Below are positions 1,332-54,499 of a DNA stretch of 54,499 nt, in pieces. The translations under genes and the position numbers were made by a program. Below the pieces are notes generated by a model. That model had not been told where the DNA came from and made no database searches. It saw only the letters and a program-made list of their open reading frames with translations. Positions within the stretch are counted from its first letter, which is position 1. Each line of letters starts with the position of its first letter. The stretch comes from Candidatus Portnoybacteria bacterium (GTDB lineage Bacteria > Patescibacteriota > Minisyncoccia > Portnoybacterales > GWB1-42-6), in assembly GCA_016208745.1 (NCBI GenBank), contig JACQXN010000017.1, positions 1-54,499 of the forward strand, read 5' to 3'.

Positions 1332-1372
1332 CCCCTGAGCGAAGGTCGCCGTAGGCGGCCGCAGTCGAAGGG
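1332..1372. repeat. GC-rich hairpin module (cctgagcgaagg...cgcagtcgaagg), left copy flanking the GIY-YIG gene
   Basis: Its ends (cctgagcg.ag / gtcgaagg) are shared with the inverted copy at 1646-1688. It has an internal cgcc-gta-ggcg hairpin. Confidence 0.65.
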
Positions 1373-1705
1373 TTACCATTTTCCCCATTCGCCCCTAATA
1401 AGTTTTTCTTTCTTTTCGCGCGTCCAGCCTTTTATTTGTTTTTCACGCCTCCTCGCTTCTTCTAGATTATTAAATTCTTCCAGATAAACAACTTCTTCTG
1501 GTTTATGTTGTGATGTAAATTTTGAACCGAGGCCGGATAAATGCTGAATCCAACGAGTGTCTGGTTTCCAAGTTAAACCGGTATAATAGAGTTTATCTCT
1601 GCATCTTATTATATATAATATACCATCTCCACTCCATTTGATTAGCCTTCGACTACGCGTCCCGCAAAAGCGGGACGCTGCGCTCAGGCAATAAAATAGC
1701 TTCAA
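1373..1705 (-). CDS. GIY-YIG nuclease family protein (UPF0213-like)
   Basis: ILYIIRCRDKLYYTGLT ... LEEARRREKQIKGWTREKK matches the GIY-YIG small-nuclease pattern. The first ~20 codons are encoded by the hairpin repeat at 1646-1688, so the true start is uncertain. Confidence 0.65.
   Translation of the reverse strand: MKLFYCLSAASRFCGTRSRRLIKWSGDGILYIIRCRDKLYYTGLTWKPDTRWIQHLSGLGSKFTSQHKPEEVVYLEEFNNLEEARRREKQIKGWTREKKEKLIRGEWGKW
1646..1688. repeat. GC-rich hairpin module, inverted copy of 1332-1372 (inside the 5' end of the GIY-YIG ORF)
   Basis: The reverse complement reads cctgagcgcagc-gtcccgcttttgcgggac-gcgtagtcgaagg. Termini match the left copy, while the central hairpin sequence differs but still pairs. 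Confidence 0.65.
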
Positions 1706-14656: not shown

Positions 14657-16561
14657 TTATTTCTTCAAAATCTCCAGAAAAACATTCTGAGGGATTTTTA
14701 TTTTCCCAATAGATTTCATCTTTTTTTTGCCCCGCTTCTGCTTTTCCAATAGTTTCCTTTTGCGAGAATAATCTCCGCCGTAAAGATAGCCGGTCACATC
14801 TTTCCGCATCGCCGCGATAGTTTCGCGCGCGATGATTTTGCCGCCAAGAGCGGCCTGCAAACTCACAGCAAACATTTGTTTGGGCAAAACTTCCTTTAAC
14901 TTACTAACTAGAGCCCTGCCTTCTTGAAAAACTCTTTCTCTTGGGACAATACGGCTTAAAGAAGACTCCTTATCACCAGCCACTAAAACATCCATCTTAA
15001 CCAAATCGGCGCTGCGCCATTCCAAGATCTCATAGCTCATGGAAGCATAACCGGAACTGACGGATTTTAAACGATCGTAAAAATCAACTATAATCTCGCG
15101 CAAAGGCGCTTCGCAAGAGAAAATGAATCGCTCGCTACCAAGATATTGAGTGTTTTTATAAACCCCGCCAGAAGACTGAACTAGTTTCATTATTGCGCCA
15201 AGATAAACATTGGGACAAATAATTTCCAATTTAATCCACGGCTCTTTAATCTGCTCCAGCCGGCTTGGGTCTGGCATCTCTTCAGCTGAATAAATTGTTT
15301 TTTCTTTATGCCCTGATTTTTCAATAATTTGATAAGCAACGCTTGGCGTTGTGACGATAAGATCAAGACCATATTCCCTTTTTAGTCTTTCACTGATAAT
15401 TTCCAGATGCAGCATTCCCAAAAACCCGCATTTAAATCCGCGGCCTAACGCTTCTGAAGACTCGGGCTCAAAAACAAGCGCGGCATCATTTAGTTTTAAT
15501 TTATTTAACGAGTCTTTTAAGTGGTCGTATTCTGCATCAGCTGAAGGATAAAAGCTGGCAAAAACCATCGGCCTTGGCTCCTTATAACCAGCCAGTGGAT
15601 TTCTGGCTTGATGATGAAAATTAGTTATTGTGTCGCCAACGCGGCATAAACTTACATCTTTAAAACCAGTAGCAATATAGCCAATGTCGCCAGCGCCAAG
15701 CTCGTTTCTTTGCGTTAAAGCCGGCTTAAATATTCCGACTTCCAAAACTTCAGATTGAGCGTGCGAACCTATTAAAAATATTTTTTCACCAGCCTTAATC
15801 TGGCCGTCAACAATTCTGACATAAGCCAAAACGCCTTTATAGGCATCGTAAACTGAATCAAAAATCAAAGCGCGCAATGGCTGGTTTATATTAACTTGGG
15901 GCGCTGGAATTTTTTGAATGACCGCCTGCAATAATTCTTCAACTCCTTTTCCTTCTTTGGCGGAAATTTTATAGATCTCCGCGTTAGAATCTCCTAATAT
16001 CTCTCTTATCTGCTCTTCCGCTTCTTTGACTCTGGCGCCCGGCAAATCAATTTTATTAATCGCTGGGATAATTTTTAAATTTTGCTCTTTGGCTAAATAT
16101 AAATTAGCTAGAGTCTGTGCTTGCACGCCTTTGGTCGCGTCAACCAGTAATATCGCGCCCTCAACCGCAGCCAACGAACGGGAAACCTCGTAAGAAAAAT
16201 CTACATGGCCGGGGGTGTCTATTAAATTTAAAGTGTAAAAATCAAAATTTAAAATTTTGGTATCCCGCTCCGCGGGATTTATTTTTAATTTTTCATTGTC
16301 ATTTTGATTTTTGCCCGCCCCGCTTCGCTTGGCGAGGCCGGGGATATTTACATTTTGCATTTTATACGCCATCCTAACCGGCTGCAATTTTATCGTTATC
16401 CCTTTTTCTCTTTCCAAATCCATCTGATCCAAATACTGCTCTCGCATTTTTCTTTTCTCAACCGCGCCGGTCAATTCCAAAAGCCGGTCCGCTAAAGTGG
16501 ATTTTCCGTGGTCAATATGAGCCAAAATTGCAAAATTCCTAATGTTCTTTAGCTCGGTCAT
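14657..16561 (-). CDS. lepA: Elongation factor 4 (LepA), with a ~33-aa insertion in the G domain
   Basis: NFAILAHIDHGKSTL, DTPGHVDF, NKID, and the C-terminal LepA region (GGDYSRKRKLLEKQKRGKKKMK). Confidence 0.95.
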   Translation of the reverse strand: MTELKNIRNFAILAHIDHGKSTLADRLLELTGAVEKRKMREQYLDQMDLEREKGITIKLQPVRMAYKMQNVNIPGLAKRSGAGKNQNDNEKLKINPAERDTKILNFDFYTLNLIDTPGHVDFSYEVSRSLAAVEGAILLVDATKGVQAQTLANLYLAKEQNLKIIPAINKIDLPGARVKEAEEQIREILGDSNAEIYKISAKEGKGVEELLQAVIQKIPAPQVNINQPLRALIFDSVYDAYKGVLAYVRIVDGQIKAGEKIFLIGSHAQSEVLEVGIFKPALTQRNELGAGDIGYIATGFKDVSLCRVGDTITNFHHQARNPLAGYKEPRPMVFASFYPSADAEYDHLKDSLNKLKLNDAALVFEPESSEALGRGFKCGFLGMLHLEIISERLKREYGLDLIVTTPSVAYQIIEKSGHKEKTIYSAEEMPDPSRLEQIKEPWIKLEIICPNVYLGAIMKLVQSSGGVYKNTQYLGSERFIFSCEAPLREIIVDFYDRLKSVSSGYASMSYEILEWRSADLVKMDVLVAGDKESSLSRIVPRERVFQEGRALVSKLKEVLPKQMFAVSLQAALGGKIIARETIAAMRKDVTGYLYGGDYSRKRKLLEKQKRGKKKMKSIGKIKIPQNVFLEILKK

Positions 16562-35083: not shown

Positions 35084-35084
35084 G

Positions 35085-38119: not shown

Positions 38120-38128
38120 ATGATTAAA

Positions 38129-38216
38129 TCTCCCCTAACCCCTCCTAAAGGAGGGGAATCACTCCCTCCCTTTAGAGCCTGCCCCGTACTTGATACGGGG
38201 GAGGGTTGGGAGGATT
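38129..38216. repeat. Cluster of GGAGGG/CCCTCC-type hairpins between tpiA and pgk
   Basis: cccctcc-taaa-ggagggg; ccccgta-cttga-tacgggg; ctccctccc...gggagggttgggagg. Confidence 0.7.
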
Positions 38217-38224
38217 TTTTAAAT

Positions 38225-42020: not shown

Positions 42021-42125
42021 AGTATAAAATTTCTAATTCCTAATTTCTAATGTCTAATTCAATCCGCCCGCCGCGGCGGGCGGATATTATTGGAAATTGG
42101 TTATTGGGAATTGGGAATTATTTAC
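42021..42125. repeat. AT-rich 'word' hairpin with a central GC hairpin (ccgcccgcc-gc-ggcgggcgg)
   Basis: The left arm aaaatttctaattcctaatttctaatgtctaattcaat pairs with the right arm atattattggaaattggttattgggaattgggaatt. Five T-vs-G positions all point in one direction. Confidence 0.75.
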
Positions 42126-42181
42126 TCCTATCATATCATATCCCTCTTTAATTTCCCAATAAAAAATCCACAGACTATAAA

Positions 42182-42213
42182 AAACAAACCCAGCAGATTT
42201 TGCTGGGTTTTTG
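42182..42213. terminator. Bidirectional terminator-like hairpin after the map operon
   Basis: aaaacaa-acccagca-gattt-tgctgggt-ttttg. Confidence 0.65.
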
Positions 42214-42215
42214 TG

Positions 42216-42634: not shown

Positions 42635-43435
42635 TTAAATTCTTGTCAAAACTTCACATCCATCTTTTGTAACAGCCACCGTATGCTCAGAATGCGCGGC
42701 TAAAGATTTGTCCTGCGTTTCAAAGGCAAAACTATTTTTATTTTGTCTGACTTTCCAGTCGCCAGCCGCAATCATTGGCTCAATAGCTAAAGTCATTCCT
42801 TCTTTTAAAACCGGGCCTTCGCCAACCTGACCAAAATTTGGCACTTCCGGATCTTCATGAAGCTCATAACCAACCCCGTGGCCAACAAGATTTCTGATTA
42901 CAGAAAAACCTTCGCCTTCCACATATTTTTGAATCGCAAAACCAATATCGCCAAGATGCGCCCCGGGTTTTATTTTTTCAATCGCGACATCAAGCGCTCC
43001 TTTGGCAACTTTTATTAGTTTTTCCGCCTCATTGCTTATTTCCCCCACCGGCACGGTCAAAGCCGCGTCAACAAAAAATGGCTTGTTCTCCGGATTACAA
43101 GAAGCGCCCATTGGACAATGGCTGCATTTGGCAACCGGGTATAAAATTCCCAGATCCAACCCTATAATTTCCCCTTCTTTCAGCTTCCTTTCAGAAGGCA
43201 CGCCATGGACAATTTCTTCGTTAACAGAGGTGCATAAAGCCGCTGGGAATCCCTGATAACCTAAAAAGGCAGGGTTTCCGCCACAAGCAAAAACAAGGTC
43301 CGAAGCGGCCTTGTTTAATTCCATTGTGGTAATACCCGGTTTTACTTTTTCTGCTATTGCCTGCAAAATCTTAGCCAGAACTTTTCCGCCTTCGGCCATA
43401 ATATTTATTTCTTGTGGGGTTTTTATCCGAATCAT
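42635..43435 (-). CDS. map: Methionine aminopeptidase type I
   Basis: Metal ligands fall in the expected order (GLD, VDAA, HGVG, LAIEP, EHT). About 18 extra Cys-containing residues lie between the first two Asp ligands. Confidence 0.9.
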   Translation of the reverse strand: MIRIKTPQEINIMAEGGKVLAKILQAIAEKVKPGITTMELNKAASDLVFACGGNPAFLGYQGFPAALCTSVNEEIVHGVPSERKLKEGEIIGLDLGILYPVAKCSHCPMGASCNPENKPFFVDAALTVPVGEISNEAEKLIKVAKGALDVAIEKIKPGAHLGDIGFAIQKYVEGEGFSVIRNLVGHGVGYELHEDPEVPNFGQVGEGPVLKEGMTLAIEPMIAAGDWKVRQNKNSFAFETQDKSLAAHSEHTVAVTKDGCEVLTRI

Positions 43436-43526
43436 GCGCTTCGCTTAAATTAAAAGTTAAAAATGAAAAATGAAAAATTTAGGAATTCCGTCGAAATTTT
43501 CTCTGAAAATTTTGACTCCATAATTT
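43436..43526. repeat. Ribosomal-cluster intergenic repeat, family A (adk|map)
   Basis: aaattaaaagttaaaaatgaaaaatgaaaaatttaggaattcc-gtcgaaatttt-ctctg-aaaattttgac-tccataattttt. Confidence 0.8.
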
Positions 43527-44201
43527 TTATTTTTGCTCTAGCGCCCTAACAATGTCCTCATGAACTTCCTCTATTGGTCTGTTGCCGTCAATTTTTACTA
43601 ACAAACCATTGGCTGCGTAATGATCAATTACCGGCTGAATTTCTGTTTCAAAAACGTCTAAACGATGCCTGACAACTTCTGGATCATCATCCGCTCTTTT
43701 GACAAGCGGACCGCCGCATTTATCGCATTTCTCAAGTTTTTTAAATTCTCCAAAATATGGAATTATCCGGCCGCACTTTTCGCACATCCGGCGCTGGGTT
43801 AAGCGAGCATATGATTCATCAGCCGAAATATCAATCAGAATAACTTTTGCAAACTCAAGCCAGTCATACCATGCCAGAGCATCTTCCATTAATCGGGCTT
43901 CAATAAGTTTTCTTGGGCTGCCGTCAAAAACAACGCCTCCAAAATTTGGCTTATTTTTTAAAGCATCAATTTTATCCAACCAGAACTTAAAAATTAAAAA
44001 GGTCGGGATTAAATCGCCTCTTTCAAGAATTTCTTTAAGTTTCTTGGTGCTAAAATTATGATCCTCTTTGACGACTTCCCGCAACAGCTCTCCGCTGCCA
44101 ATATATGATAAACCAAACTTCTCCTGAAGCATTTTTGCCTGGGTGCCTTTGCCGCAACCAGGCCGACCGAGAATTATAAGGATTAGTGGATTACTTTGCA
44201 T
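43527..44201 (-). CDS. adk: Adenylate kinase (zinc-lid type)
   Basis: P-loop GRPGCGKGTQ and a lid with CEKCGR...CDKCGG. Confidence 0.9.
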   Translation of the reverse strand: MQSNPLILIILGRPGCGKGTQAKMLQEKFGLSYIGSGELLREVVKEDHNFSTKKLKEILERGDLIPTFLIFKFWLDKIDALKNKPNFGGVVFDGSPRKLIEARLMEDALAWYDWLEFAKVILIDISADESYARLTQRRMCEKCGRIIPYFGEFKKLEKCDKCGGPLVKRADDDPEVVRHRLDVFETEIQPVIDHYAANGLLVKIDGNRPIEEVHEDIVRALEQK

Positions 44202-44209
44202 TTTTTAAA

Positions 44210-44387
44210 CTTGCATGGCAAAAATTTTTTTATAAAATCGCAGCGAGCCAAACGTTGAAAAAATTGCCGACGGAGGAGTGAAGCGACGAGTTTAGGAGGC
44301 AATTTTTAGCGAGGCGAGCCCGATTTTATTAAAATTTTATGCCTGCAAGCAGTTTTTTCCGCCGCTTTTTTGCTGCCAAAAAAGCGG
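44210..44387. repeat. ~190-nt composite structured repeat, copy D (secY|adk)
   Basis: Outer stem cttgcatggcaaaaatttttttataaaatcg / cgattttattaaaattttatgcctgcaag and inner stem gaaaaaattgcc / ggcaattttt. The apex is identical to copy B. The trailing hairpin is ccgcttttttg-ctgc-caaaaaagcgg. Confidence 0.8.
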
Positions 44388-44393
44388 TAAAAT

Positions 44394-45668
44394 TTACAGC
44401 CCCTCATATTCCCTCATCGTCAACTGGGAATCAATTTGCCTAATAGTTTCCAAAACCACAGCCACCACGATTAGAATTGAAGTTCCGCCAACGGTGAAAG
44501 TGGTGATACCTGTGGCGCCTTGAACCACATTTGGCGCAATCGCGATAAGACCTAAAAATACCGCGCCGACTAAAAGCACGCGGTTAACGATAAAATTTAA
44601 AAAATCAGTAGTGGGTTTACCCGGTCTAATGCCGGGAATGAACCCTCCCATTTTTTGTAAGTTTTCAGAAATATTTTTTGGATCAAAGGTGACCGCTGTA
44701 TAAAAGTATGTGAAAAGAAGGACCAAAATAAAATAGGCAACGCTATATACAATGCTTTGAGGACTAAGCGCTGTGCTTAAGAATGTTGCGGCTTTTGCCA
44801 CCCAGGCTGTGCCGGAATTAGCAAAAAAGCTTCCCACCATGCCCGGCAACAGCATAATTGAAATAGCAAAAATAATTGGAATAACACCAGCTGGGTTAAC
44901 ATTCATTGGCAAATAAGTTGAGACGCCGCCATACATCTTGTTGCCGCGGACTCTTTTAGCATAAGAAACAGGAATATTGCGCCGGCCTTCGGTGATGATT
45001 ACGACTCCGACAATGACCACGACAGCAATCACAGCAAACCCAAGATATGAGGGGATTTTTGACGGATCCCAAACAGCCAATGTCTGCCTAAAAGAAGAGG
45101 GGAAACCAGCCACAATGCCGGCAAAAATTAAAAGAGAAACGCCATTGCCAATTCCTTTTTCTGAAATTAGCTCTCCCAACCACATCAAAAAAACTGTGCC
45201 AGCTGTTATGGTTAAGATGGTGATTGATAATTGAAAAGTGGTCAAAACGCCGATAACCTGCTGGCTTTTTAAAATACTAATCATAGCGTAAGACTGCAAA
45301 GCGGCTAAGGGAATAGTTAAAAGCCTGGCATATTGATTAAACTTCCGACGGCCTGCCTCTCCTTCTTCTTTATACATTGCCTCCAGGGCAGGAAAAATCA
45401 TAGTCAAAAGCTGCATAATAATCAAAGCGGTGATATAAGGACCAAGCCCCAACATAGCAATCGAAAAATTACTCATTGCGCCGCCGGTAAAAATATTCAA
45501 CAAACCAAATAACTGATTGCCTTCAAAAAATCCCCTTAAGCGCGAAACGTCAATTCCGGGAACCGGAATGTTGGCTAATATTCGCGAAACGACAAAAACG
45601 CCCAAGACAAAAATAACCTTCTTACGCAAATCAGCGATTTTAAATATTTGAATTACTTTCTGCCACAT
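44394..45668 (-). CDS. secY: Preprotein translocase subunit SecY
   Basis: Ten-TM protein with typical SecY motifs (LGLGPYITALIIMQLL, GEGGRRK-like loop) at the canonical position after rplO. Confidence 0.95.
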   Translation of the reverse strand: MWQKVIQIFKIADLRKKVIFVLGVFVVSRILANIPVPGIDVSRLRGFFEGNQLFGLLNIFTGGAMSNFSIAMLGLGPYITALIIMQLLTMIFPALEAMYKEEGEAGRRKFNQYARLLTIPLAALQSYAMISILKSQQVIGVLTTFQLSITILTITAGTVFLMWLGELISEKGIGNGVSLLIFAGIVAGFPSSFRQTLAVWDPSKIPSYLGFAVIAVVVIVGVVIITEGRRNIPVSYAKRVRGNKMYGGVSTYLPMNVNPAGVIPIIFAISIMLLPGMVGSFFANSGTAWVAKAATFLSTALSPQSIVYSVAYFILVLLFTYFYTAVTFDPKNISENLQKMGGFIPGIRPGKPTTDFLNFIVNRVLLVGAVFLGLIAIAPNVVQGATGITTFTVGGTSILIVVAVVLETIRQIDSQLTMREYEGL

Positions 45669-45779
45669 TGTTCTCCGCCAGCTGGCGGATCAATTTAAAA
45701 GTTAAAAATGAAAAGGTAAAAAGTTAATTTTTCGGTTTTTAATTTTTAAATGTCGTTTTTATATTTTATATTTTCCTTT
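45669..45779. repeat. Ribosomal-cluster intergenic repeat, family B (rplO|secY)
   Basis: ccgccagctggcgg hairpin followed by caatttaaaagttaaaaatgaaaaggtaaaaagttaatttttcggtttttaatttttaaatgtcgtttttatattttatattttccttttt. By my reading this is identical to the copy at 52947-53059 over about 90 nt. Confidence 0.85.
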
Positions 45780-46211
45780 TTAAATTATGTTTCCTCCTGC
45801 CTTCTCCACCTTCTCTTTTGCGCTCTGGGATATTTGAAGGCCCTTAAAACTTAACTTCTTTTTTATTTCTCCGTCTCCTAAAATCTTAACTTCCGGCATT
45901 CTCCCTTTTATTCTACTAATTAATTTTCTTTCTAGCAATGATTTTATAGACACTATCTCCCCTTCTTTAAAAAATTTGCCTAAAAAACCAAGGTTAATTA
46001 TGAGAGGCTTTGTCTGTGTTGATCTGAATTTATAGCCGCGCATCTTTGGCGTTTGCTTAACTAAATCGCGCCACTCTGGCCTGATTTTTGCACCGGCTCT
46101 TGATTTCTGCCCCTTAACTCCACGGCCAGAAAAAGTCCCGCGCTTACCGCCACGGCCAACGCGTTTCTTAGTTTTTTGTTTATTTGTCGATCTTATTTGA
46201 TGTAGCTGCAT
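45780..46211 (-). CDS. rplO: 50S ribosomal protein L15
   Basis: RVGRGGKRGTFSGRGVKGQKSR motif, at the canonical position. Confidence 0.9.
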   Translation of the reverse strand: MQLHQIRSTNKQKTKKRVGRGGKRGTFSGRGVKGQKSRAGAKIRPEWRDLVKQTPKMRGYKFRSTQTKPLIINLGFLGKFFKEGEIVSIKSLLERKLISRIKGRMPEVKILGDGEIKKKLSFKGLQISQSAKEKVEKAGGNII

Positions 46212-46345
46212 AATTCTCCGTCCCGCCTTGGCGGGCGGACTAAATTAAAAGTGAAAAATGAAAAGTGAAAAATTTATGAATTCCGTTAAAATTTTCAAAG
46301 AAAATTTTAACTCCATAATTTTTTCCGCCTGCCTGGACGGGCGGA
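46212..46345. repeat. Ribosomal-cluster intergenic repeat, family A flanked by two GC hairpins (rpsE|rplO); occupies the position where rpmD would be
   Basis: cccgccttggcggg; the family A core with stem gttaaaatttt/aaaattttaac; ccgcctgcctggacgggcgg. Confidence 0.8.
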
Positions 46346-46831
46346 TCAGCCTCGAGCTGAATTTTTTAATTTTTTTAGGGCTTCTATCGTTGCCCGAGCA
46401 TTATTCAATTTATTAGTTGAACGACTAACGACTTTACCGCTAATATTTTCAATTCCAGCCAAGGCACAAATTATTCTAAGCATTCCCCCTGCTACCAATC
46501 CTCTACCTCTCTTTGCCGGCTTTAAAATTACCTGCGCCGCGCCAAATTTCGCTGAAACCTCATGAGGAATAGTCCCTTCTTTTGTGGGTACTTCAATTAA
46601 ATTTTTTCTCGCTTTCAGCGCCGCCTTTTCAACTCCTAAAGTCACGTCCTGTCCTTTGGCTAATCCGATTCCAACTTTCCCTTTCATATTTCCTATGGCC
46701 ACGGTTATGCGGAAAGAAAATCTCCGTCCACCAGCCACCACACGCGTCACCCGCGCCACGTCCAAAAGCCTCTGCTCATATTCAGACTTTTCTCTCTCCC
46801 TGGCTCTTGGTCTTCTTGTTGATTCGGTCAT
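46346..46831 (-). CDS. rpsE: 30S ribosomal protein S5
   Basis: RVTRVVAGGRRFSFRITVAIGN...GIGLAKGQDV. Confidence 0.9.
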   Translation of the reverse strand: MTESTRRPRAREREKSEYEQRLLDVARVTRVVAGGRRFSFRITVAIGNMKGKVGIGLAKGQDVTLGVEKAALKARKNLIEVPTKEGTIPHEVSAKFGAAQVILKPAKRGRGLVAGGMLRIICALAGIENISGKVVSRSTNKLNNARATIEALKKLKNSARG

Positions 46832-46868
46832 ATTTTATAGGTCTTATGAGTCCTATCGGACCTATTTC

Positions 46869-47231
46869 TTAAAATTTTAATCCTCCTTCTCTGGCTCCCT
46901 CTGCCACCGCTTTTATTCGACCATGAAATTTAAAACCAGCTCTGTCAAAAACTATTTTTTCTATTTTTTTCTCTAATGCCTTTTTTGCCAAAAGCATCCC
47001 TATTTCTTTCGCCAAATCAATTTTCTTTTTACCCTTCGCCCTCTCAATATTTAAATCACTAATATTAATTAAGGTCGACATGCGTTGATCATCAATAAGC
47101 TGCCCATAAATATGCCGGTTACTTCGAAAAACAGCAAGCCGCGGACGGCTAGACGTGCCAAAAATCCTCGCTCTAATTTTGCGATGTCGCCTGGCTCTTT
47201 TCTGTCTTTTTGCTTTCATTTTATTTGGCAT
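46869..47231 (-). CDS. rplR: 50S ribosomal protein L18
   Basis: RRHRKIRARIFGTSSRPRLAVFRSNRHIYGQLIDD. Confidence 0.9.
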   Translation of the reverse strand: MPNKMKAKRQKRARRHRKIRARIFGTSSRPRLAVFRSNRHIYGQLIDDQRMSTLINISDLNIERAKGKKKIDLAKEIGMLLAKKALEKKIEKIVFDRAGFKFHGRIKAVAEGAREGGLKF

Positions 47232-47240
47232 ATATTTAGA

Positions 47241-47801
47241 TTACATTTCGGTTGAAGCAGTTTTCTTGCCGGCTTTGATTTTAACCACCTCATCCTGATA
47301 TCTTATCCCCTTGCCTTTATATGGCTCGGGTTTCTTTTTCGCCCTTAAAGCAGCTGCCACCTGACCAACTAATTGTTTGTCTGGACCAGAAACGCTAATA
47401 ATATTTTTTTCCAGCTTAAATTCAATTCCTTCGGGTGCCTCAAATTCAACCGGGTGAGAAAATCCCAAATTTAAAACAAGCTTATTGTTTCCCTGCGCCT
47501 GAGCGCGAAAACCAACACCCTGAATTTCCAGTTTTTTCTCAAAGCCATCTTTGACCCCTTTGACCATATTGGCAATAAGCGCCCTGCCCAATCCCCAAAA
47601 AGCCATTATTTTTTTATCAGCTAGGGCTGAATCAGAAGCAGGAGAAATCAAAATTTTATTATCTTCCAGCTTGATTTCCAAATCCTGCGGAAACTTATAT
47701 TGTAATTCGCCCTTGGGCCCCTTAACCATTATCAAATCGCCATCGATTTTTACTTCGACTTTTTCTGGAATTAAAATTGGTTGTTTTCCGATACGTGACA
47801 T
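47241..47801 (-). CDS. rplF: 50S ribosomal protein L6
   Basis: MSRIGKQPILIPEKVEV... with two L6 repeats. Confidence 0.9.
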   Translation of the reverse strand: MSRIGKQPILIPEKVEVKIDGDLIMVKGPKGELQYKFPQDLEIKLEDNKILISPASDSALADKKIMAFWGLGRALIANMVKGVKDGFEKKLEIQGVGFRAQAQGNNKLVLNLGFSHPVEFEAPEGIEFKLEKNIISVSGPDKQLVGQVAAALRAKKKPEPYKGKGIRYQDEVVKIKAGKKTASTEM

Positions 47802-47906
47802 ATGCGCTTCGCTAAATTAAAAGTTAAAAATGTAAAATGTAAAATTTAGGAATTCGTGAAAAATTTTTGAACAAAAATTTTTCACTCATTAATTATCAAT
47901 TATTTT
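47802..47906. repeat. Ribosomal-cluster intergenic repeat, family A (rpsH|rplF)
   Basis: The core stem gtgaaaaattttt/aaaaatttttcac is a compensated variant of the other copies. Confidence 0.8.
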
Positions 47907-48293
47907 CTACCATATTTCACACAAAATTTCTCCGCCTAGACCAGCCTTTTTTGCTTCCTTATTAGTCATTAGTCCTTTTGAGGTAGAAATAATCGCCCGG
48001 CCATAACCCTGTTTAACGGGCCAGATTTGTCCTTTTTTCAAATAGAGCCTTCGTCCCGGCTTGCTTTTCCTTAAAACGCCTTGGATCGCTCCTTGCCCTT
48101 CATCGTATCTTAAAGTAATTGAAATCTTATGATTAGCTTTTTTGCCCTTTTCTTCAATACCGCCAATAAAATTTTCTTTCTCTAAAATTTTAGCCAAAGC
48201 AAACTTTAGGTTAGAAAAAGGCATTTCCACATTTGGCCTGCCCGCTGCTTGGGCATTTTTGATTCTTATTAACATGTCAGAAATTGTATCCAT
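47907..48293 (-). CDS. rpsH: 30S ribosomal protein S8
   Basis: DTISDMLIRIKNAQAAGR. Confidence 0.9.
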   Translation of the reverse strand: MDTISDMLIRIKNAQAAGRPNVEMPFSNLKFALAKILEKENFIGGIEEKGKKANHKISITLRYDEGQGAIQGVLRKSKPGRRLYLKKGQIWPVKQGYGRAIISTSKGLMTNKEAKKAGLGGEILCEIW

Positions 48294-48418
48294 AGTTCTC
48301 CGCCCGCTGGCGGATCAATTTAAAAGTTAAAAATGAAAAAGTAAAAGTTAATTTTCCGGTTTTTAATTTTTAAATGTCGTTTTTATATTTTCTATTTTCC
48401 TTTTTAAATTTACCGCTT
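48294..48418. repeat. Ribosomal-cluster intergenic repeat, family B (rpsN|rpsH)
   Basis: ccgcccgctggcgg hairpin followed by the family B unit. Confidence 0.85.
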
Positions 48419-48604
48419 TTACCAGCTAGATTTCTTAATTCCCGGAATCATTCCTTGATTAGCTAATTCCCTAAAGCAAATTCGGCACAAATCAAAATCT
48501 CTCATATACCCACGCTTGCGCCCACAGCGAAAACAACGTCTAACAATTCTGGTTGTAAATTTGGGTTTTCTTTTTGATTTTGCAATTTGAGCTTTAGTCG
48601 CCAT
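48419..48604 (-). CDS. rpsN: 30S ribosomal protein S14, zinc-binding (type Z)
   Basis: 61 aa; [23 protein letters not shown]. Confidence 0.9.
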
Positions 48605-48696
48605 ATGCGCTTCGCTAAATTAAAAGTTAAAAATGAAAAGTGAAAAATTTATGAATTACGTCAAAATTTTCTTTGAAAATTTTGACTCCATAATTT
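48605..48696. repeat. Ribosomal-cluster intergenic repeat, family A (rplE|rpsN)
   Basis: Core stem gtcaaaatttt-ctttg-aaaattttgac. Confidence 0.8.
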
Positions 48697-49239
48697 TTAA
48701 TTTGTCTTTATTGGGAATCCCGTCATTCTAAATAATTCCATTCCTTCTTCTTGGGTTTTAGCAGTTGTCTTAACAGTTATTTCCAGACCAAAGATGTGAT
48801 GAATATTTTCATGAGAAATTTCGGGAAAAATGATATGTTCTTTCAAACCAATCGTTAAATTACCGTTCTGGTCAACTGATTTTTGATTAAGTCCGCGGAA
48901 ATCTCGACTTCGCGGCGAAGCAAGAGAGACCAACCTTTCTAGAAAATCAAACATCTTCTGTTTTCTCAATGTTGCCACCAAACCAACTTTCATTCCCTGC
49001 CTTGTTTTAAAAGCAGCAATGGCTTTTTTGGCTTTCGTAAAAACCGGTTTTTGTCCGACAATCATTGTTAAATCTCGAATAATTTCTTCTAGCGCCTTCT
49101 CGTCGCCGGAAAATTTTCCAATTCCAATATTAACCGTCACCTTTTCAAAGTGCGGAACCGCTAAGATGTTCCCATAACCAAACTTCTCTTTCATCGCCGG
49201 GATTACTTCTTTTTTGTATTTTTCCTGTAAACTTTTCAT
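48697..49239 (-). CDS. rplE: 50S ribosomal protein L5
   Basis: LQEKYKKEVIPAMKEKFGYGNILAVPHFEKVTVNIG. Confidence 0.9.
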   Translation of the reverse strand: MKSLQEKYKKEVIPAMKEKFGYGNILAVPHFEKVTVNIGIGKFSGDEKALEEIIRDLTMIVGQKPVFTKAKKAIAAFKTRQGMKVGLVATLRKQKMFDFLERLVSLASPRSRDFRGLNQKSVDQNGNLTIGLKEHIIFPEISHENIHHIFGLEITVKTTAKTQEEGMELFRMTGFPIKTN

Positions 49240-49245
49240 GTATTT

Positions 49246-49551
49246 TTAAACCTCCTGCCCGCACTTTTTACAAATCCTTATCTTTCCTGCGTCCGTTATC
49301 TTATAGCCAACCCGGGCCGCCTGATTGCATCTTTGGCAGATTAATTTAACATTGGCAACAGAAAAAGGCTTGGGGATTTCGATAACTTGCCCTTTTTCAT
49401 TCTGTTTTCTGGGTTTTCTGTGTTTTTTAACCAAATTCATGCCTTCAACCATAATCTTGGAAAGTTCCGGAAAAACTTTCAGCACTTTGCCCTTTTTGCC
49501 TTTATCCTTGCCCGCAATAACTAAAATTGTATCATTTTTCTTTATTTTCAT
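49246..49551 (-). CDS. rplX: 50S ribosomal protein L24 with a C-terminal CxxC...CxxC zinc-ribbon tail
   Basis: KOW motif KKNDTILVIAGKDKGKKGKV and tail CQRCNQ...CKKCGQ. Confidence 0.9.
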   Translation of the reverse strand: MKIKKNDTILVIAGKDKGKKGKVLKVFPELSKIMVEGMNLVKKHRKPRKQNEKGQVIEIPKPFSVANVKLICQRCNQAARVGYKITDAGKIRICKKCGQEV

Positions 49552-49742
49552 GCCAATTTTGTTTAAATTTATGAGCTCAATTTATTGTAGCGAAATAAAT
49601 TTAACTACAAAATTGAGCACCGAGCATATAATTTATTAATTTAAAAAAATGCCTTAGATTAATAAATTATGTGCTCGGTAAAGGTTTTGTAACCAAATTT
49701 TCTGCTCCGCCCTGGGCGGATCGAAAATTTGGACAAAGCCCT
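49552..49742. repeat. Intergenic hairpin cluster (rplN|rplX)
   Basis: gctcaatttattgtag...ctacaaaattgagc; caccgagcatataatttattaat...attaataaattatgtgctcggt; ccgccctgggcgg. Confidence 0.7.
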
Positions 49743-50108
49743 CTAAACTACTTCCGGCGCCAGCGACGCAATTTTATCAAATCCTCTTTCTTTTATTTCT
49801 TTAGCCACCGGACCAAATATTCTGCCGCCCTTTGGCTCTTTGCCATCTAAAATCACCGCCGCATTATCGCTGAATCTAATATAGGAGCCGTCAGAGCGCC
49901 GAAAAGCCTTTCTTTGACGAACAATAACTGCTTTAACTATATCGCCTTTTTTAACCATTTTACGCGGCTCAGCTTCTTTAACAGAAGCAACTACAATATC
50001 TCCCAATTGCGCATAGCGCCTTCTGGTCCCGCCTAAAACCTTAAAACACTGGATAATCTTTGCTCCGGTGTTGTCGGCGACTTTTAACATTGTTCTTGGT
50101 TGCACCAT
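49743..50108 (-). CDS. rplN: 50S ribosomal protein L14
   Basis: [17 protein letters not shown]. Confidence 0.9.
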
Positions 50109-50184
50109 ATCAAAAAATTTCTAATATCTAATATCTAATTTCTAATCCAATCCCGCGAAGCGGGATATTATTGGTAATTGGTAA
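50109..50184. repeat. AT-rich 'word' hairpin with a central cccgcgaagcggg (rpsQ|rplN)
   Basis: aaaatttctaatatctaatatctaatttctaatccaat ... atattattggtaattggtaatt. Confidence 0.7.
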
Positions 50185-50436
50185 TTATATCTTCCTTGCT
50201 ATTCTCCATCTTTTGCCTCTGCTAATCGGCCGGCATTCGTAAATTGTGACCTTATCGCCAATCTTTGCTTCGTTTTTTTCATCATGAACCTTATATCTTT
50301 CCGTTACCTTAAATCTTTTTTTGTATTTCGGATGTTCCTTTAATCTGGTCACCTGAACAATTGCGGTTTTCTGCATTCTATCAGAAACCACCACCCCTCT
50401 CAAGGCTCTTATGGTTTTTGTTTTATTTCTTGTCAT
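50185..50436 (-). CDS. rpsQ: 30S ribosomal protein S17
   Basis: LRGVVVSDRMQKTAIVQV...IYECRPISRGKRW. Confidence 0.9.
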   Translation of the reverse strand: MTRNKTKTIRALRGVVVSDRMQKTAIVQVTRLKEHPKYKKRFKVTERYKVHDEKNEAKIGDKVTIYECRPISRGKRWRIARKI

Positions 50437-50734
50437 GTTTTTTGTTTAAAATAGCTTGCCCTTCCGAAGTTTTTTTACGAAGGAGGGCTCGCCCCTCCAA
50501 AGCTTTTTCGCGTAGGGGGGTTTGCTCTTCTGGCTTGCCTTCGGAAGTTCTTTGACGCAAAAGAGTCAATATCCTAGCTATCGCTCTCTTAGTTTGAGAA
50601 ATTTCTCCGACATTCCTTAATTTCTTCTCTGCTAAACCAAAATTGAAAACTCTCGTTTTCTCTCTTAATTCTTTCAGCATTGTTCTTAGCTCTTCGTCTG
50701 TTTTGGAACGCAATTCCTTGATTTCTATTTCCAT
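50423..50734 (-). CDS. rpmC: 50S ribosomal protein L29 with a ~42-aa repeat-derived C-terminal extension
   Basis: The L29 core ELRSKTDEELRTMLKELREKTRVFNF...ARILTLLRQR is followed by TSEGKPEEQTPLREKALEGRALLRKKTSEGQAILNKKHDKK. It overlaps rpsQ by 14 nt. Confidence 0.85.
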   Translation of the reverse strand: MEIEIKELRSKTDEELRTMLKELREKTRVFNFGLAEKKLRNVGEISQTKRAIARILTLLRQRTSEGKPEEQTPLREKALEGRALLRKKTSEGQAILNKKHDKK

Positions 50735-50740
50735 AATGAA

Positions 50741-51151
50741 TTACTTACTTAAAAATTTAGTTTTGACCGATAATTTGTCAGCCGCGAGCCTCAAGGCCTC
50801 TTTAGCCACATCCGTTGTTATTCCGTCCATTTCAAATAGAATTCTACCAGGTTTTACCGGCACGACATAATGATCAACTGCTCCCTTGCCGCCGCCCATA
50901 GGCACTTCAGTCCCTTTTCTTGTCACCGGTTTATGAGGAAAAATTCTAATCCAGATTTTGCCGCCGCGCTGGACATACCGCGTCATTGCTCTTCTGGCCG
51001 CTTCAATTTCCCGGGCATTAAGCCAGCCTTCTTCTAAAGCCTTAAGGCCTGAAGAACCAAAAGCCAACTGCGTGCCCCTGGATTCTGCACCAGCGAATCT
51101 TCTTCTTCCTTTTTGCCATTTACGATGTTTTACTTTTTTAGGTAAAAGCAT
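50741..51151 (-). CDS. rplP: 50S ribosomal protein L16
   Basis: [16 protein letters not shown]. Confidence 0.9.
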
Positions 51152-51196
51152 AAATTCTCCTATAAGTCCTATAAGACCTATAGGTCTTATAGGCTA

Positions 51197-51847
51197 TTAG
51201 AATACATCTCCTTTATAAACCCAGACTTTAATCCCGACTGTTCCGTAGGTAGTGTAAGCTGTGGCTTGGGCGTAATCAATATTTGCCCTCAATGTCTGGA
51301 GGGGAATTTTGCCTTTGGCCATCTTCTCTTCCCGCGCGATTTCTGCTCCGTCAAGACGGCCTTTTGTTAAAATTTTTGCACCCTCTACTCCTTTTGATTG
51401 TAAAATTTTTGCCATCGCCTGTTTCATTGCCCGACGATAAGAAATTCTTTTTTCAATCTGTTCAGCGATTCCCTGAGCCATAATTGCCGCTCTGGATTCA
51501 GGAAATTTAACTTCTTCTATTTCCAGACGAACTTCCGCTTTTGCCAACGTCGTAGATTCTTTTTTGATAATTTTTTTAACATCTTCTCTTAATTGCTCAA
51601 CGCCGCTACCACCCCGACCAATGATTATCCCGGGCCTGGCTGTCTTTATAACAATATTTACCGCATTGGCTGATCTCTCAATATCTATTCTATCAACGCC
51701 AGCTCTTAAAAGTTTTTGCGTTAAAAAATCTCGGATTTTTACATCCTGTTTAAGAAAATTTTTATATGACTTTTTATTATACCAGCGCGATTTCCAATCA
51801 TCTGTATGCCCGATTCGGAAAACGACTGGATTAACTTTTTGTCCCAC
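51197..51847 (-). CDS. rpsC: 30S ribosomal protein S3 (GTG start)
   Basis: GQKVNPVVFRIG and a KH domain. Confidence 0.9.
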   Translation of the reverse strand: MGQKVNPVVFRIGHTDDWKSRWYNKKSYKNFLKQDVKIRDFLTQKLLRAGVDRIDIERSANAVNIVIKTARPGIIIGRGGSGVEQLREDVKKIIKKESTTLAKAEVRLEIEEVKFPESRAAIMAQGIAEQIEKRISYRRAMKQAMAKILQSKGVEGAKILTKGRLDGAEIAREEKMAKGKIPLQTLRANIDYAQATAYTTYGTVGIKVWVYKGDVF

Positions 51848-51953
51848 GTTCGCTTACGCTCAATTTAAAAGTTAAAAATGAAAAAGTAAAAGTTAATTTT
51901 TCGGTTTTTAATTTTTAAATGTCGTTTTTATATTTTCTGTTTTCCTTTTTCAA
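51848..51953. repeat. Ribosomal-cluster intergenic repeat, family B (rplV|rpsC)
   Basis: gttcgcttacgctc followed by the family B unit. Confidence 0.85.
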
Positions 51954-52523
51954 TTATATTGATTTTCTCCTAAATACTTTCTTCATATTGCCAAAAGTCT
52001 GTCTGCTGAAAAATCTTTTCTTTGATTGAGTTGACGCTCCATATGGCTTTGCCGGCACCGATGGTTTAGTTTTTGACTCCGCCTGCTCTGGAACAGCCAG
52101 TATTTTTTCTTCTTTTTCAACAATAGATTTTTCCCTTAATTCTTCTTTGCCTGTCGATTTTTTCTTTTTAATATCAGAAATTTTAGTAGGAACCTTTTCA
52201 TCCAAAATTAAATTTATCTTAGAAGTCCTTTTTAAAATAGGGGTCGCCCGACCCATAGCTCGCGGTAGCCAGCGTTTGAGGCTCAGGCCTGCTTCAACCG
52301 TTAATTTAGAAATAAACAAGTTATTTTCATCCAAGCTAAAATTGTGCTTAGCATTGCCGATCGCTGAACTTAATAATTTATACAATGGCTCGGCTGTCTT
52401 TTTGCTCATAAACCTAAGCTGAGCTTGAGCCTTTTTGGCATTCATCCCTTTTACTAAATTTGCCACCAATCTTACTTTCCTTGGCGACATTCTTAGATTG
52501 TCTAGTTTGGCTGTAACTTTCAT
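51954..52523 (-). CDS. rplV: 50S ribosomal protein L22 with a ~75-aa Lys/Glu-rich C-terminal extension
   Basis: MKVTAKLDNLRMSPRKVRLVANLVKG. The ATG at 52523 is preferred over the TTG at 52532. Confidence 0.9.
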   Translation of the reverse strand: MKVTAKLDNLRMSPRKVRLVANLVKGMNAKKAQAQLRFMSKKTAEPLYKLLSSAIGNAKHNFSLDENNLFISKLTVEAGLSLKRWLPRAMGRATPILKRTSKINLILDEKVPTKISDIKKKKSTGKEELREKSIVEKEEKILAVPEQAESKTKPSVPAKPYGASTQSKKRFFSRQTFGNMKKVFRRKSI

Positions 52524-52616
52524 ATACCCCAATTAATTATTAACGAATTAATAAATTAACGGATTTTAATTCCCAATGCGTTGATTCGTTAATCCGTTAA
52601 TAAACAATGGACTAAT

Positions 52617-52946
52617 TTATTTTTTTTCTGCCGGCGCCTTTGCCTGCGCCGTTGCATTTTGAGCAGCAGCCGCTTCAAGCTCTCTTTGCATTCGTCCGCC
52701 GTGCCTGACAAATTTTCTGGTTGGCGCAAATTCCCCTAATTTATGACCGACCATTTCTTCAATAATAAAAACCGGAGTGTGCTGGCGGCCGTTATGAACC
52801 CCAAAAGTAAAACCTACCATCTCTGGCGTAATCACGCAAGCTCGCGCCCAGGTCTTGATAATTGTTTTATCACCCGCCTTTAAATCTTTAATTTTCTTTA
52901 ATAATTTCTGGTCCACATAAGGACCTTTTTTTAGACTGCGAGACAC
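52617..52946 (-). CDS. rpsS: 30S ribosomal protein S19 (GTG start, Ala-rich C-terminal tail)
   Basis: [18 protein letters not shown]. Confidence 0.9.
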
Positions 52947-53059
52947 GTTCGCTTACGCTCAATTTAAAAGTTAAAAATGAAAAGGTAAAAAGTTAATTTT
53001 TCGGTTTTTAATTTTTAAATGTCGTTTTTATATTTTATATTTTCCTTTTTAATTAATCC
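52947..53059. repeat. Ribosomal-cluster intergenic repeat, family B (rplB|rpsS)
   Basis: gttcgcttacgctc followed by a family B unit identical to the 45669 copy. Confidence 0.85.
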
Positions 53060-53887
53060 TTACTTCCTTCTCTGCAAAATAAACCTATTTGACCATTTCT
53101 TTTTTCTTCTTGTTTTAACCCCTAGCGCCTGCTTGCCCCAAGGAGTTTTTGGCCCTCTCCTTAAACCAATCGGCGCTCGGCCTTCGCCTCCGCCATGAGG
53201 ATGGTCAACTGGATTCATGGCTGAACCTCTGACTGTCGGCCTTATCCCCATCCATCGCGCTCTTCCTGCTTTGCCAATGACCTCAATGCCGTGCTCAGGA
53301 TTGCTGACTTGGCCAATTGTAGCAAAACAAGTATCTCTAAACTTTCTAATTTCACCTGATGGAAATTTTATGTCTGTGTATCCGCCTTCGTTAGCCATAA
53401 CTTGGGCAAAAGACCCGGCCGAATGAACAAGTTTTCCGCCGCTGCCCGGGACAGTTTCAATATCATGAATTTGCGTGCCAACTAAAATATTTTTTAGCAA
53501 AAGACGATTGCCGATATTTGCCGGCGCGTTTTCTTGAGTTATAACTTCGCTGCCTGTTTTTAAATCATGCGGCGCAATAATATATCTTTTTTCGCCATCT
53601 TTGTAATTTAATAAAGCGATAAAGCAAGAACGATTAGGGTCGTATTCAATTGCGGAAACTTTAGCTGAGATTCCAAATTTGTCCCGTCTGAAATCTATTA
53701 AGCGATACTGCCTTTTGTGCCCGCCTCCTTTATGCCATACAGTTATACGGCCGCTGCGACCACGGCCTGCCTGTTTTTTTAACGGCGCCAGCAAGCTCTT
53801 TTCCGGTTCTTTGATAGTCAAAATCCCCTTCGTTTCAACACGAGTCATTTGCCTTCTTCCTGGGCTTGTTGGTCGATAATCTTTCAT
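53060..53887 (-). CDS. rplB: 50S ribosomal protein L2
   Basis: [29 protein letters not shown]. Confidence 0.95.
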
Positions 53888-54017
53888 AATTTTGCTAAAA
53901 GGTTTGATTAATTATGTGCGCTACAGAATACGAATGACTTACAGATATACAGATAAACATTCTGTTGCGATAAGTGTTTCTCAATCTGTATATCTGTACT
54001 TATCTGTATGCTGGTAG

Positions 54018-54479
54018 CTATCGGGGCATTATTTCAATCTTTTCTCCTTCTGCTAATTTGACCATTGCTTTTTTGAAACCGGGCTTAAAACCTTCGCTCT
54101 TGCCAATCCGACGGGCTTTTCTTGGAGTGTTTACAATATTGACTTTATCAACTGCCACGCCATACAAATCCTGAACCGCTTTCTTGATTTCCTGTTTATT
54201 AGCCGGGGAGTAAACATTAAAAACGTAGATATTTCTATCAGCCAGCATACCGGACTTCTCTGTCACGCGCGGGGATTCTAAAATTCTGTAGGCTTGGGAA
54301 AAATGTTTTTTCTCAACCCGCTTGGTGAGCTTGGCCGGCTTTTGCAAAATTTCATCTAAATTCTTCTTGAGCTTTGGCGCCTCTTTTGGCGCGGCTTTCG
54401 CTGACTTTTCCGAAACCTTTGCCTTTTTAGCTTCCGGCTCTATTTTTTTAGTTTTTTTAAATCGATCAAATAATGACAT
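54018..54479 (-). CDS. rplW: 50S ribosomal protein L23 with a ~55-aa Lys/Ala-rich N-terminal extension
   Basis: Core SPRVTEKSGMLADRNIYVFNVYSPANKQEIKKAVQDLYGV. Confidence 0.85.
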   Translation of the reverse strand: MSLFDRFKKTKKIEPEAKKAKVSEKSAKAAPKEAPKLKKNLDEILQKPAKLTKRVEKKHFSQAYRILESPRVTEKSGMLADRNIYVFNVYSPANKQEIKKAVQDLYGVAVDKVNIVNTPRKARRIGKSEGFKPGFKKAMVKLAEGEKIEIMPR

Positions 54480-54499
54480 ATGAGCTTCGCTAAATTAAA
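54480..54499. repeat. Start of another family A repeat (truncated by the window edge)
   Basis: atgagcttcgctaaattaaa matches the first 20 nt of the copies at 47802 and 48605. Confidence 0.6.

Follow-up and report, generated by a model that had tools for sequence, protein, structure and literature searches.

The palindromic elements of Rickettsia (RPE) are reportedly hairpin repeats of ~100-150 bp that form several families between the genes of a small reduced genome, and they are said to occur also within conserved protein genes, where they keep the reading frame and lie in surface loops; no transposase is known for them. The intervening sequences (IVS) in the 23S rRNA of Salmonella, Leptospira and Coxiella are AT-rich stem-loops, sporadically present at helix tips and excised by RNase III, that are tolerated in an essential, highly expressed transcript since they are self-folding; some carry an open reading frame (ORF) for the PF05635 four-helix-bundle protein in the loop. 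MITEs (miniature inverted-repeat transposable elements), as well as the Correia, REP and ERIC repeats, are short, non-autonomous, multi-copy palindromes; RNase III cleaves Correia repeats, which can also provide signals for expression. Two families of hairpin elements, here named A and B, fill gene junctions of the ribosomal-protein (r-protein)/secY cluster in a 54,499-nucleotide stretch of DNA (contig JACQXN010000017.1, forward strand; the whole stretch is called the window below). In behaviour these elements are closest to RPE, 23S rRNA IVS and MITE/Correia repeats, yet they do not fit the classical definition of a MITE or of an IVS. We consider it probable, at about 0.6, that A and B are duplicating palindromic elements, selfish but filtered or co-opted as leaders that lack a Shine-Dalgarno (SD) sequence.

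The resemblance to RPE lies in the size of the hairpins, the several families, the position between the genes of a small reduced genome, the want of a known transposase and, in an insert within lepA, the in-frame presence in a conserved protein gene. The elements differ from RPE in that their arms are built of tandem 7-8-nt words in many dialects (sequence homology to RPE would not be expected across phyla), in that the copies are concentrated at operon junctions, where they give the start-codon context, and in that ORF-bearing versions with nucleases exist. They resemble IVS as AT-rich stem-loops, present in some genomes and absent from others, that would fold on themselves within an essential, highly expressed transcript, and perhaps also in the PF05635 ORFs that lie between word arms of the same kind at loci L015 and L125 of other genomes; they differ by residing in mRNA junctions and in lepA, not in rRNA, and the lepA copy must be translated through. 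Like MITEs and the Correia, REP and ERIC repeats, they are short palindromic intergenic repeats, multi-copy and presumably co-transcribed with the neighbouring genes, and they share with MITEs near-identical copies per genome (96-99% identity among the B copies of the window) and an occupancy that varies among four genomes. Arms made of word arrays, nesting within loops and in-frame insertion into coding sequence are atypical of MITEs. The literature on the word sequences and on intergenic repeats of the candidate phyla radiation (CPR) yielded no description of such elements. TIGR arrays were considered and rejected as a counterpart: these consist of two alternating 8-12-nt repeats with 9-nt spacers, in ~36-nt units that recur 5-15 times beside a tas gene with a Nop domain (PMC12045711), whereas here the period is 7-8 nt, the words form the two inverted arms of dispersed hairpins, the spacers have no fixed length and no tas gene is nearby.

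Families A and B in the ribosomal-protein cluster

The cluster of ribosomal-protein genes, secY, adk and map runs on the minus strand from rplW (54479) down to map (42635). The SecY homologues identify the organism as Candidatus Portnoybacteria (Parcubacteria, CPR), the best relatives being 86% and 83% identical. Family A is present in four full copies and one at the window edge, family B in four copies, and all of them lie on the minus strand, which is the gene (sense) strand:

Family A, 43436..43526, minus strand, adk/map: 12-bp inner AU hairpin (43490-43516) with one A·C mismatch; in the 3' part a U-rich word tract (23-mer at 43447-43469) and GC mini-hairpin GCGAAGCGC (43436-43444), the map start directly after
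Family A, 46212..46345, minus strand, rpsE/rplO: nested in a GC-rich outer hairpin, TCCGCCCGTCC...GGCGGGACGGA
Family A, 47802..47906, minus strand, rpsH/rplF: the most diverged copy; 14-bp stem GTGAAAAATTTTTG/CAAAAATTTTTCAC; mini-hairpin at 47804-47812
Family A, 48605..48696, minus strand, rplE/rpsN: perfect 12-bp stem; mini-hairpin at 48607-48615
Family A, 54480..54499, minus strand, upstream of rplW: 3' end of the fifth copy, TTTAATTTAGCGAAGCTCAT-ATG, cut by the window edge
Family B, 45669..45779, minus strand, rplO/secY: in mRNA order an A-word arm and a U-word arm (23-mer at 45692-45714); at the 3' end GC hairpin TCCGCCAGCTGGCGGA (45674-45689) overlapping GGAG, then the secY start
Family B, 48294..48418, minus strand, rpsN/rpsH: GC hairpin at 48299-48314
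Family B, 51848..51953, minus strand, rplV/rpsC: ends in GAGCGTAAGCGAAC-GTG (51848-51861), a GUAA-loop mini-hairpin
Family B, 52947..53059, minus strand, rplB/rpsS: ends in GAGCGTAAGCGAAC-GTG (52947-52960)

Both families had been described in an initial annotation of the window, and their positions and sequences were borne out. Profiles searched with nhmmer recover the four full A and the four B copies at E 1e-21 to 1e-30, the four A stems read as quoted there, the B copies at 45669 and 52947, which it called identical, have identical cores over ~90 nt, and the further palindromes that it listed are present. The repeat census covers the 54-kb window. In the other 43 kb nothing comparable was detected by nhmmer, except one weak match inside lepA, and A/B copies occupy 9 of the 20 junctions of the rplW–map cluster against 0 of the 41 other junctions (Fisher p ~1e-5). 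The shared 23-mer has eight matches in the window, all on the minus strand, where shuffles lead one to expect 0. Since an independent Logan contig (SRR12113398) equals 44358-45710 of the window with 0 mismatches and ends inside repeats on both sides, the A/B repeats are real and multi-copy and no assembly artefact.

Read as mRNA, both families have at their 3' end one U-rich word module, TTTWCATTTTTMACTTTTAAWTT, and then a small GC hairpin that abuts the start codon. The hairpin takes the form of GCGAAGCGC with 0-2 nt before ATG, of GAGCGTAAGCGAAC directly joined to GTG, or of TCCGCCnnnnGGCGGA overlapping GGAG. A and B, first presented as two separate families, are therefore not independent of each other, as this 3' word module is common to both. 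The tract that had been named an A-rich word tract is indeed present, but with all genes on the minus strand it is in the mRNA a U-rich tract just upstream of the start. Family A consists of an AU-rich inner hairpin of 12-14 bp and the U-rich word tract, which begins ~13 nt after the stem. Its full symmetric form (A-words, hairpin, U-words) is found only in another Patescibacteria genome, L064, so that the five A copies of the window are a 5'-truncated derivative. The rpsE/rplO copy has a minimum free energy of -48.6 kcal/mol (z -5.2), and the only SD-like GGAG before rplO falls in the 3' arm of its outer hairpin. Family B consists of a long A-word arm followed by a U-word arm, the U-words being predicted to pair with either of two A-word blocks; the ends, AATTTAAAAAG...CTTTTAAATT, are imperfect, and the arms are long and complementary. 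Predicted helices measure 19-31 bp. A small peptide encoded by family A was considered and rejected: an ATGGAG... ORF has 11-23 codons, and neither its frame nor its peptide is kept between copies.

Covariation between copies, together with their near-identity, had been taken to suggest a recently active element or a selected function; a selected RNA structure is not established by the alignment. Pairs were counted in a hand-made structural alignment because MAFFT misaligns the 3' arm of the diverged copy. Among the four A stems only two pair positions vary on both sides (C-G/T-A/G-C and C-G/G-C), and one copy has two extra stem pairs; four copies of A carry no statistical power, and the B copies are too similar to test. 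The single G-T pair ascribed to the 43436 stem exists as a wobble on the antisense strand only and reads as an A·C mismatch in the mRNA. When 55 junction elements from four genomes were folded, the antisense strand was the more stable by a mean of 2.6 kcal/mol relative to the mRNA strand (p 0.002), so there is no sign of wobble tolerance in the mRNA; RNA-level selection on the sense strand was rejected, as the energies slightly favour antisense. The palindrome of the family A stems is clearly maintained, and a DNA palindrome can stay symmetric without selection on RNA.

Scans for known signals found no fit. Rfam at gathering score over the window found only three tRNAs and no rRNA, and at E up to 1 in 43000-54499 it returned nothing plausible, r-protein leaders included, so the comparison with Rfam r-protein leaders that had been proposed yielded no match. 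No intrinsic terminator-like site (GC stem plus U-run) was found within A or B on the minus strand. A sigma-70 consensus scan found no recurrent -35/-10 pair in the word tracts, its sole match lying in the hairpin loop of one A copy.

Turnover at gene junctions and inside lepA

A and B form one dialect, the A/T-rich one, of a broader class of "word hairpins", whose arms are made of tandem 7-8-nt words; a single genome has at least eight word dialects, unrelated to one another, that trade places between junctions. The clusters compared were those of the window and of its Portnoybacteria relatives L122, L124 and L125, a further one (L121) being full of N gaps. Junctions of the relatives hold 80-250-nt hairpins in other vocabularies, with words such as TACGAAT, TACAGAT, CACGAAT or AAAATGC in the 5' arm and a complementary 3' arm. 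The spacers between the words are often non-complementary, and the ACCAAT and ATTAGA arms found in elements of the window are wholly so. The dialect at a given junction differs from genome to genome, and of 20 junctions followed through the four genomes, most that are expanded in one measure at most 17 nt in another:

adk/map: 91 nt in the window, 5 and -4 nt in relatives
rplO/secY: 111 nt in the window, 13 nt in relatives
rpsH/rplF: 105 nt in the window, 6 nt in relatives
rplE/rpsN: 92 nt in the window, 4 and 2 nt in relatives

Seven of the nine A/B junctions are compact in at least one relative (the exceptions are rplV/rpsC and rpsN/rpsH), so no element is required there. Nesting is also seen: the A copy at rpsE/rplO lies inside a GC hairpin, a B copy of L122 is split by a GC insert, and two lepA copies hold different nested hairpins. 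Contigs of independent assemblies break at the repeats, and many contigs with SecY homologues are only 1.3-2 kb long. At ~4937-5808 of L123 (ENA NODE_208) the r-protein cluster is duplicated as a mirror image joined at the S17/L14 junction element; most likely the hairpin repeat made the assembly fold back into a chimera here.

A related element lies inside a protein gene:

16238..16360, minus strand: A/T-word palindrome in-frame in lepA (14657-16561), two GC hairpins being nested within its ~41 codons

It is found by the family B profile at E 7e-4, uses the same word dialect and folds as a palindrome, yet it is no A or B member proper. The insert is located in the G domain, just before the DTPGH motif, and solved LepA structures in the PDB have no counterpart of residues 73-107. 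Among 18 related LepA proteins, this loop holds no insert in 5 and differing inserts, ~5-60 residues long, in the rest; in one relative a whole PD-(D/E)XK domain (PF13366, "GxxExxY", PDDEXK_3) occupies the site in-frame. There are at least two more insertion hot spots in LepA, and at a second hot spot some relatives have an in-frame PPL..LKGG insert that looks like a translated GC-rich repeat of the type CCCTCCTTTAAAAAGGAGGG. The inserts of the window and of L146 agree in 97% of their nucleotides (91% at third positions), against 74% and 52% for the rest of lepA, and each of the two lineages carries its own nested GC hairpin in the insert. Since the insert is far more alike than the rest of lepA, the element is much more recent than the split of the gene that hosts it, and this identity points to lateral or homing-like spread. 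The same logic suggests, more weakly, that family B may be younger than its host genes: its copies are 82-92% identical to the L122 copies at rpsN/rpsH and rplV/rpsC, with 4-fold sites saturated at 39%.

Word hairpins as a class multiply in the genome, turn over, nest and enter coding loops in-frame, and can be far younger than the host gene. The view of the initial annotation that A and B represent a recently active element agrees with the near-identical copies, the varying junction occupancy, the nesting and the related in-frame copy in lepA. Restriction to operon-internal junctions, which it also raised, holds for A and B within the window but not for the wider class, which is found inside lepA and, in other CPR genomes, in the 5' untranslated region (5'UTR) of rpmF and directly upstream of rpsT and rnpA.

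Some hairpins carry ORFs between arms of the same kind, and one of these lies in the window:

1334..1688, minus strand: ORF-bearing hairpin element at a gene junction, with a GIY-YIG nuclease ORF (1373-1705) between inverted arms

The arms are perfect inverted repeats (CCTGAGCG..TCGAAGG and CCTTCGA..CGCTCAGG), each with a small GC hairpin, and the ORF of 110 aa has a TTG start that overlaps the stop of the upstream gene. In L125, small ORFs lie in the loops of word hairpins at 12053-12527 and 15689-16100; this genome has a PDDEXK_3 (GxxExxY) gene between adk and map with the flanks CCTCACGAATTACGAAT / ATTCGTAATTCGAGAGG, and a PF05635 gene for the 23S-IVS protein flanked by inverted AACTTGAAAC words. 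At the Omnitrophota junction L015, A-words are followed by an IVS-protein ORF (PF05635, E 4.6e-20) and by U-words that include the exact 23-mer; a possible ACGAG direct repeat flanks the L015 element only. A general association with IVS-protein or PDDEXK_3 ORFs was rejected, as ~1 Mb of loci contains three and two of these ORFs, respectively, and none of the IVS-protein ORFs lies within A/B.

Association with start codons and rival explanations

The terminal 21 nt of family A (ACTTTTAATTTA[N]GCGAAGCGC) recur at 19 metagenome loci, 17 of which have a sense start codon 0-3 nt downstream. The ~6 distinct genes that follow comprise rpsT, rpmF, rnpA and rpsH, besides one unknown gene and a methyltransferase-like gene with 6 orthologues. 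Where the module stands before rpmF, in L133/L142, a good sigma-70 match (TTGTCA-17-TAATAT) lies ~45 nt further upstream of it, so the module there is 5'UTR and not promoter. In the last 45 nt before the starts, ATG is rarer than CAT (12 vs 36). At the six orthologous methyltransferase-like loci the 21-mer itself was chosen by the search, and the U-tract upstream of it was compared; this tract is conserved no better than third codon positions. Because the essential genes that follow A and B lack any further initiation signal, we infer that the U-rich word tract and the mini-hairpin act as their leader. Such a leader may have been selected for its quality, or harmful orientations may only have been weeded out. 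The functions put forward in the initial annotation (mRNA processing or segmental stability, translational coupling) are possible, and it is this start-proximal part of the element that looks linked to expression.

An SD-like motif is present within 20 nt of the start in only ~12 of the 60 genes of the window, and upstream regions are A/T-rich; initiation in this organism appears to be mostly SD-independent. The observation in the initial annotation that several starts lack a free SD is thus correct, but it is not special to these junctions: as SD-like motifs are rare genome-wide, the SD-less starts behind family A are the rule here and not an oddity. The module UUUUCAUUUUUAACUUUUAAUUU contains UUAACUUUUAA just 5' of SD-less starts and in this would resemble A/U-rich translational enhancers such as T7 gene 10 epsilon (UUAACUUUA) and the atpE leader; it differs in that a GC mini-hairpin stands in the place of the SD helix and in that the family B tract is predicted to be paired.

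Matches to the 23-mer were found at more than 119 loci in many phyla, about one third of them 5-28 nt upstream of a long ORF, and at none among 2.9 million viral contigs. The cross-phylum matches are mixed: some are antisense, with A-words on the sense strand, and some are probable Lys-rich coding sequence (KNEKLK repeats, Alkaliphilus). Some taxonomic labels of these loci are doubtful, and the cross-phylum matches are used as leads only. Deep homology across phyla was rejected, since extended similarity is seen only among the CPR matches.

If A and B are duplicating palindromic elements, they would spread via recombination or homing-like copying, possibly with help in trans from the small nucleases of the ORF-bearing versions (GIY-YIG, PD-(D/E)XK "GxxExxY", the 23S-IVS four-helix-bundle protein). 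They would be transcribed with the r-protein operon and fold on themselves, leaving the neighbouring messages undisturbed, and RNase III may cut back their long AU hairpins as it does the intervening sequences of rRNA. Only the sense orientation and the start-proximal form would survive, and the end of the element would serve as the translation-initiation leader of rpsH, rplF, rpsN, rplO, secY, rpsC, rpsS and map. In the r-protein cluster every element has a U-rich tract nearly free of ATG/GTG and, immediately before the start that follows, a small GC hairpin.

Several observations weigh against this explanation. The flanks of the eight full A/B copies show no consistent direct repeat as expected of a target-site duplication, no transposase was seen in the window, where ten small ORFs were scanned, the ORFs between word arms of other dialects being only small nuclease or IVS-protein ones, and no empty-site polymorphism within a population was found; the mobility mechanism is a proposal. 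Family A is present only in a one-armed, 5'-truncated form, yet in five copies, which mobilisation by terminal inverted repeats does not explain. All copies reside in one co-directional cluster, and their sense orientation in nine of nine cases does not amount to nine independent events. The IVS-protein ORF lies between the arms at one of the ~120 loci with the 23-mer, and the link of hairpins to nucleases, with its few cases, is anecdotal. Six junctions (L23/L2, S19/L22, L22/S3, S3/L16, S14/S8 and SecY/Adk) are at least 45 nt long in all four genomes, and these, two of them with B, hint that some element may be needed there. Furthermore, B is found at two orthologous junctions of L122, which has a B-like element at rpsN/rpsH and, at rplV/rpsC, the same GAGCGTAAGCGAAC ending with the same GTG start; its conservation exceeds that of synonymous sites, and purifying selection by the host would explain this equally well.

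These last points lend themselves to another explanation, possible but clearly less probable, in which the elements are intercistronic expression modules selected by the host. The AU hairpin would be an RNase III-type processing site, a 3'-end stabiliser or an insulator, the U-words would recruit the 30S subunit, possibly via S1, without an SD, the GC mini-hairpin would position or protect the start, and gene conversion would copy the cassette. The 3' module always abuts the starts of essential genes that have no other ribosome-binding signal, the same 21-mer abuts starts in other CPR genomes (17 of 19) and is 5'UTR in L133/L142, and what spreads of A is a truncated form, reduced to precisely the part next to the start; the retention of B at two orthologous junctions (82-92%) where neutral sites are saturated and the six junctions expanded in four of four genomes are in keeping with it. 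At 19-31 bp the predicted helices have the length that RNase III needs, and the intercistronic RNase III sites of phage T7 are likewise hairpins of about two helical turns with internal loops, between the cistrons of a long transcript; the hairpins here differ in being almost pure A-U and in varying between relatives. However, compactness of seven of the nine A/B junctions in some relative makes the module dispensable there, and inside the coding sequence of lepA an intercistronic function would be senseless. The better folding of the antisense strand (2.6 kcal/mol, p 0.002), on which the sole wobble pair of family A is also found, the predicted pairing of the B U-words with A-words, which leaves them not free, and the U-tract that is no better conserved than third codon positions at six orthologous loci all speak against it as well. 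A little more doubtful is the variant of a portable SD-independent expression cassette for operon-internal genes, a mobile ribosome-binding site, in bacteria that have mostly abandoned SD pairing, copied between junctions and between genomes because it works; we would be just as cautious about the division of labour in which the AU hairpin insulates or is processed, the start-free U-tract loads the 30S subunit and the GC hairpin, 0-2 nt from AUG, replaces the SD/anti-SD helix.

Internal promoters are improbable. The A/T words would form an UP element, the U-words would hold the -35 and -10 (TTcACt-N16-TAAtTT), the GC hairpin would be a GC-rich discriminator like that of promoters under stringent control, and the mRNAs would be near-leaderless; by eye, TTCACT/TTTACC-N16-17-TAATTT/TAAATT can be read in both families with the -10 at 10-13 nt from AUG, which would fit the absence of an SD. 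The consensus scan, on the other hand, gave no consistent sigma-70-like site in the U-words, the much better match ~45 nt upstream in L133/L142 places the module in the 5'UTR, and the same words occur inside lepA. It is just as improbable that the elements are binding-site arrays for a DNA- or RNA-binding protein (a nucleoid protein, an r-protein autoregulator or an RNA chaperone) with the 7-8-nt words as recognition units. Arms of near-identical words with non-complementary spacers, and above all the non-complementary ACCAAT and ATTAGA arms, do suggest that the words are conserved rather than the helix, but one protein cannot explain at least eight unrelated dialects that swap junctions in one genome, the elements are dispensable at most junctions and no candidate protein was identified. 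Chance AT-rich low complexity or an assembly artefact has next to no probability: the words are of low complexity and the 23-mer also matches unrelated genomes, where it can be coding (KNEKLK, Alkaliphilus), but the eight matches against 0 in shuffles, the nhmmer E-values, the identical independent assembly and the related copies in relatives contradict it.

Other repeats of the window and their significance

Coding density is the same in the cluster (86%) as outside it in the window (84.5%), and ~15% is intergenic both in the cluster and in the window overall; the expanded, repeat-filled spacers are a trait of the entire 54-kb window and not of the cluster alone. Besides A and B, the cluster contains the following elements:

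53888..54017, minus strand, rplW/rplB: word hairpin TACAGAT/ATCTGTA, a dialect present at four junctions in L125
52533..52616, minus strand, rpsS/rplV: word hairpin TTAACGRAT/ATYCGTTAA
51152..51196, minus strand, rpsC/rplP: short palindrome with the words TATAAGACC / GGTCTTATA; a related one at 46832-46868
50109..50184, minus strand, rpsQ/rplN: ACCAAT words and ATTAGAW words around a GC hairpin, arms not complementary
49552..49742, minus strand, rplN/rplX: family C, a GC-richer structured repeat; second copy at 10846-11025

Kin of the rpsQ/rplN element lie at 42021-42215 and 9995-10164. Family C is also found in the relatives (L122 4730-4875 and 8643-8842; L124 5187-5442; L125 7644-7818) and abuts start codons. 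Its flanks are conserved (ACAAAACCTTTACC ... GGTGCTCAAT ... AACAACATTGGC-ATG), and its central hairpin is wholly different in sequence from copy to copy and always paired, with compensatory changes in 14 of 24 RNAalifold pairs.

Further repeats lie elsewhere. A composite repeat occurs at four places (44202-44393, 34884-35084, 13344-13730 and 14178-14656), with a counterpart at the syntenic place in L146; it consists of a stem with U/A runs (e.g. CCGCTTTTTTGGCAGCAAAAAAGCGG), then a promoter-like word in two inverted copies (CTTGCAnGGCAAAAATTTT..TAAAATCG) that face inward on either side of a GC-rich core. GC-rich hairpins of the type CCCTCCTTTAAAAAGGAGGG stand at several gene ends (11868-11906, 20622-20660, 25659-25743 and 38120-38224). 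At 8958-9053 and 12880-12990 tRNA genes sit within extended hairpins: the acceptor stem of the tRNA at 8970-9040 is lengthened by a perfect 20-nt inverted repeat, TCCCGCCCATAGCTGCCGGG / CCCGGCAGCTATGGGCGGGA, and the tRNA at 12899-12970 is flanked by ATCCGCC/GGCGGAT. An exact 53-nt direct repeat is found at 28583-28635 and 28766-28818, 183 nt apart, one copy at the end of the ORF 27527-28633 and one just downstream of that ORF.

CPR/Patescibacteria are regarded as streamlined, yet in this operon, the most conserved one of the cell, most of the spacer is made up of hairpin repeats that turn over between close relatives. The repeats explain the assembly breaks around ribosomal genes, which affects marker-gene phylogeny and completeness estimates. 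For the study of probable selfish DNA within essential transcripts they are a manageable example, they may connect hairpins that have no ORF with the small, enigmatic proteins of the GIY-YIG, GxxExxY and 23S-IVS types, and their natural SD-less leaders, U-rich words with a GC mini-hairpin (UUUUCAUUUUUAACUUUUAAUUUAGCGAAGCGCAU-AUG), are candidate translation signals.

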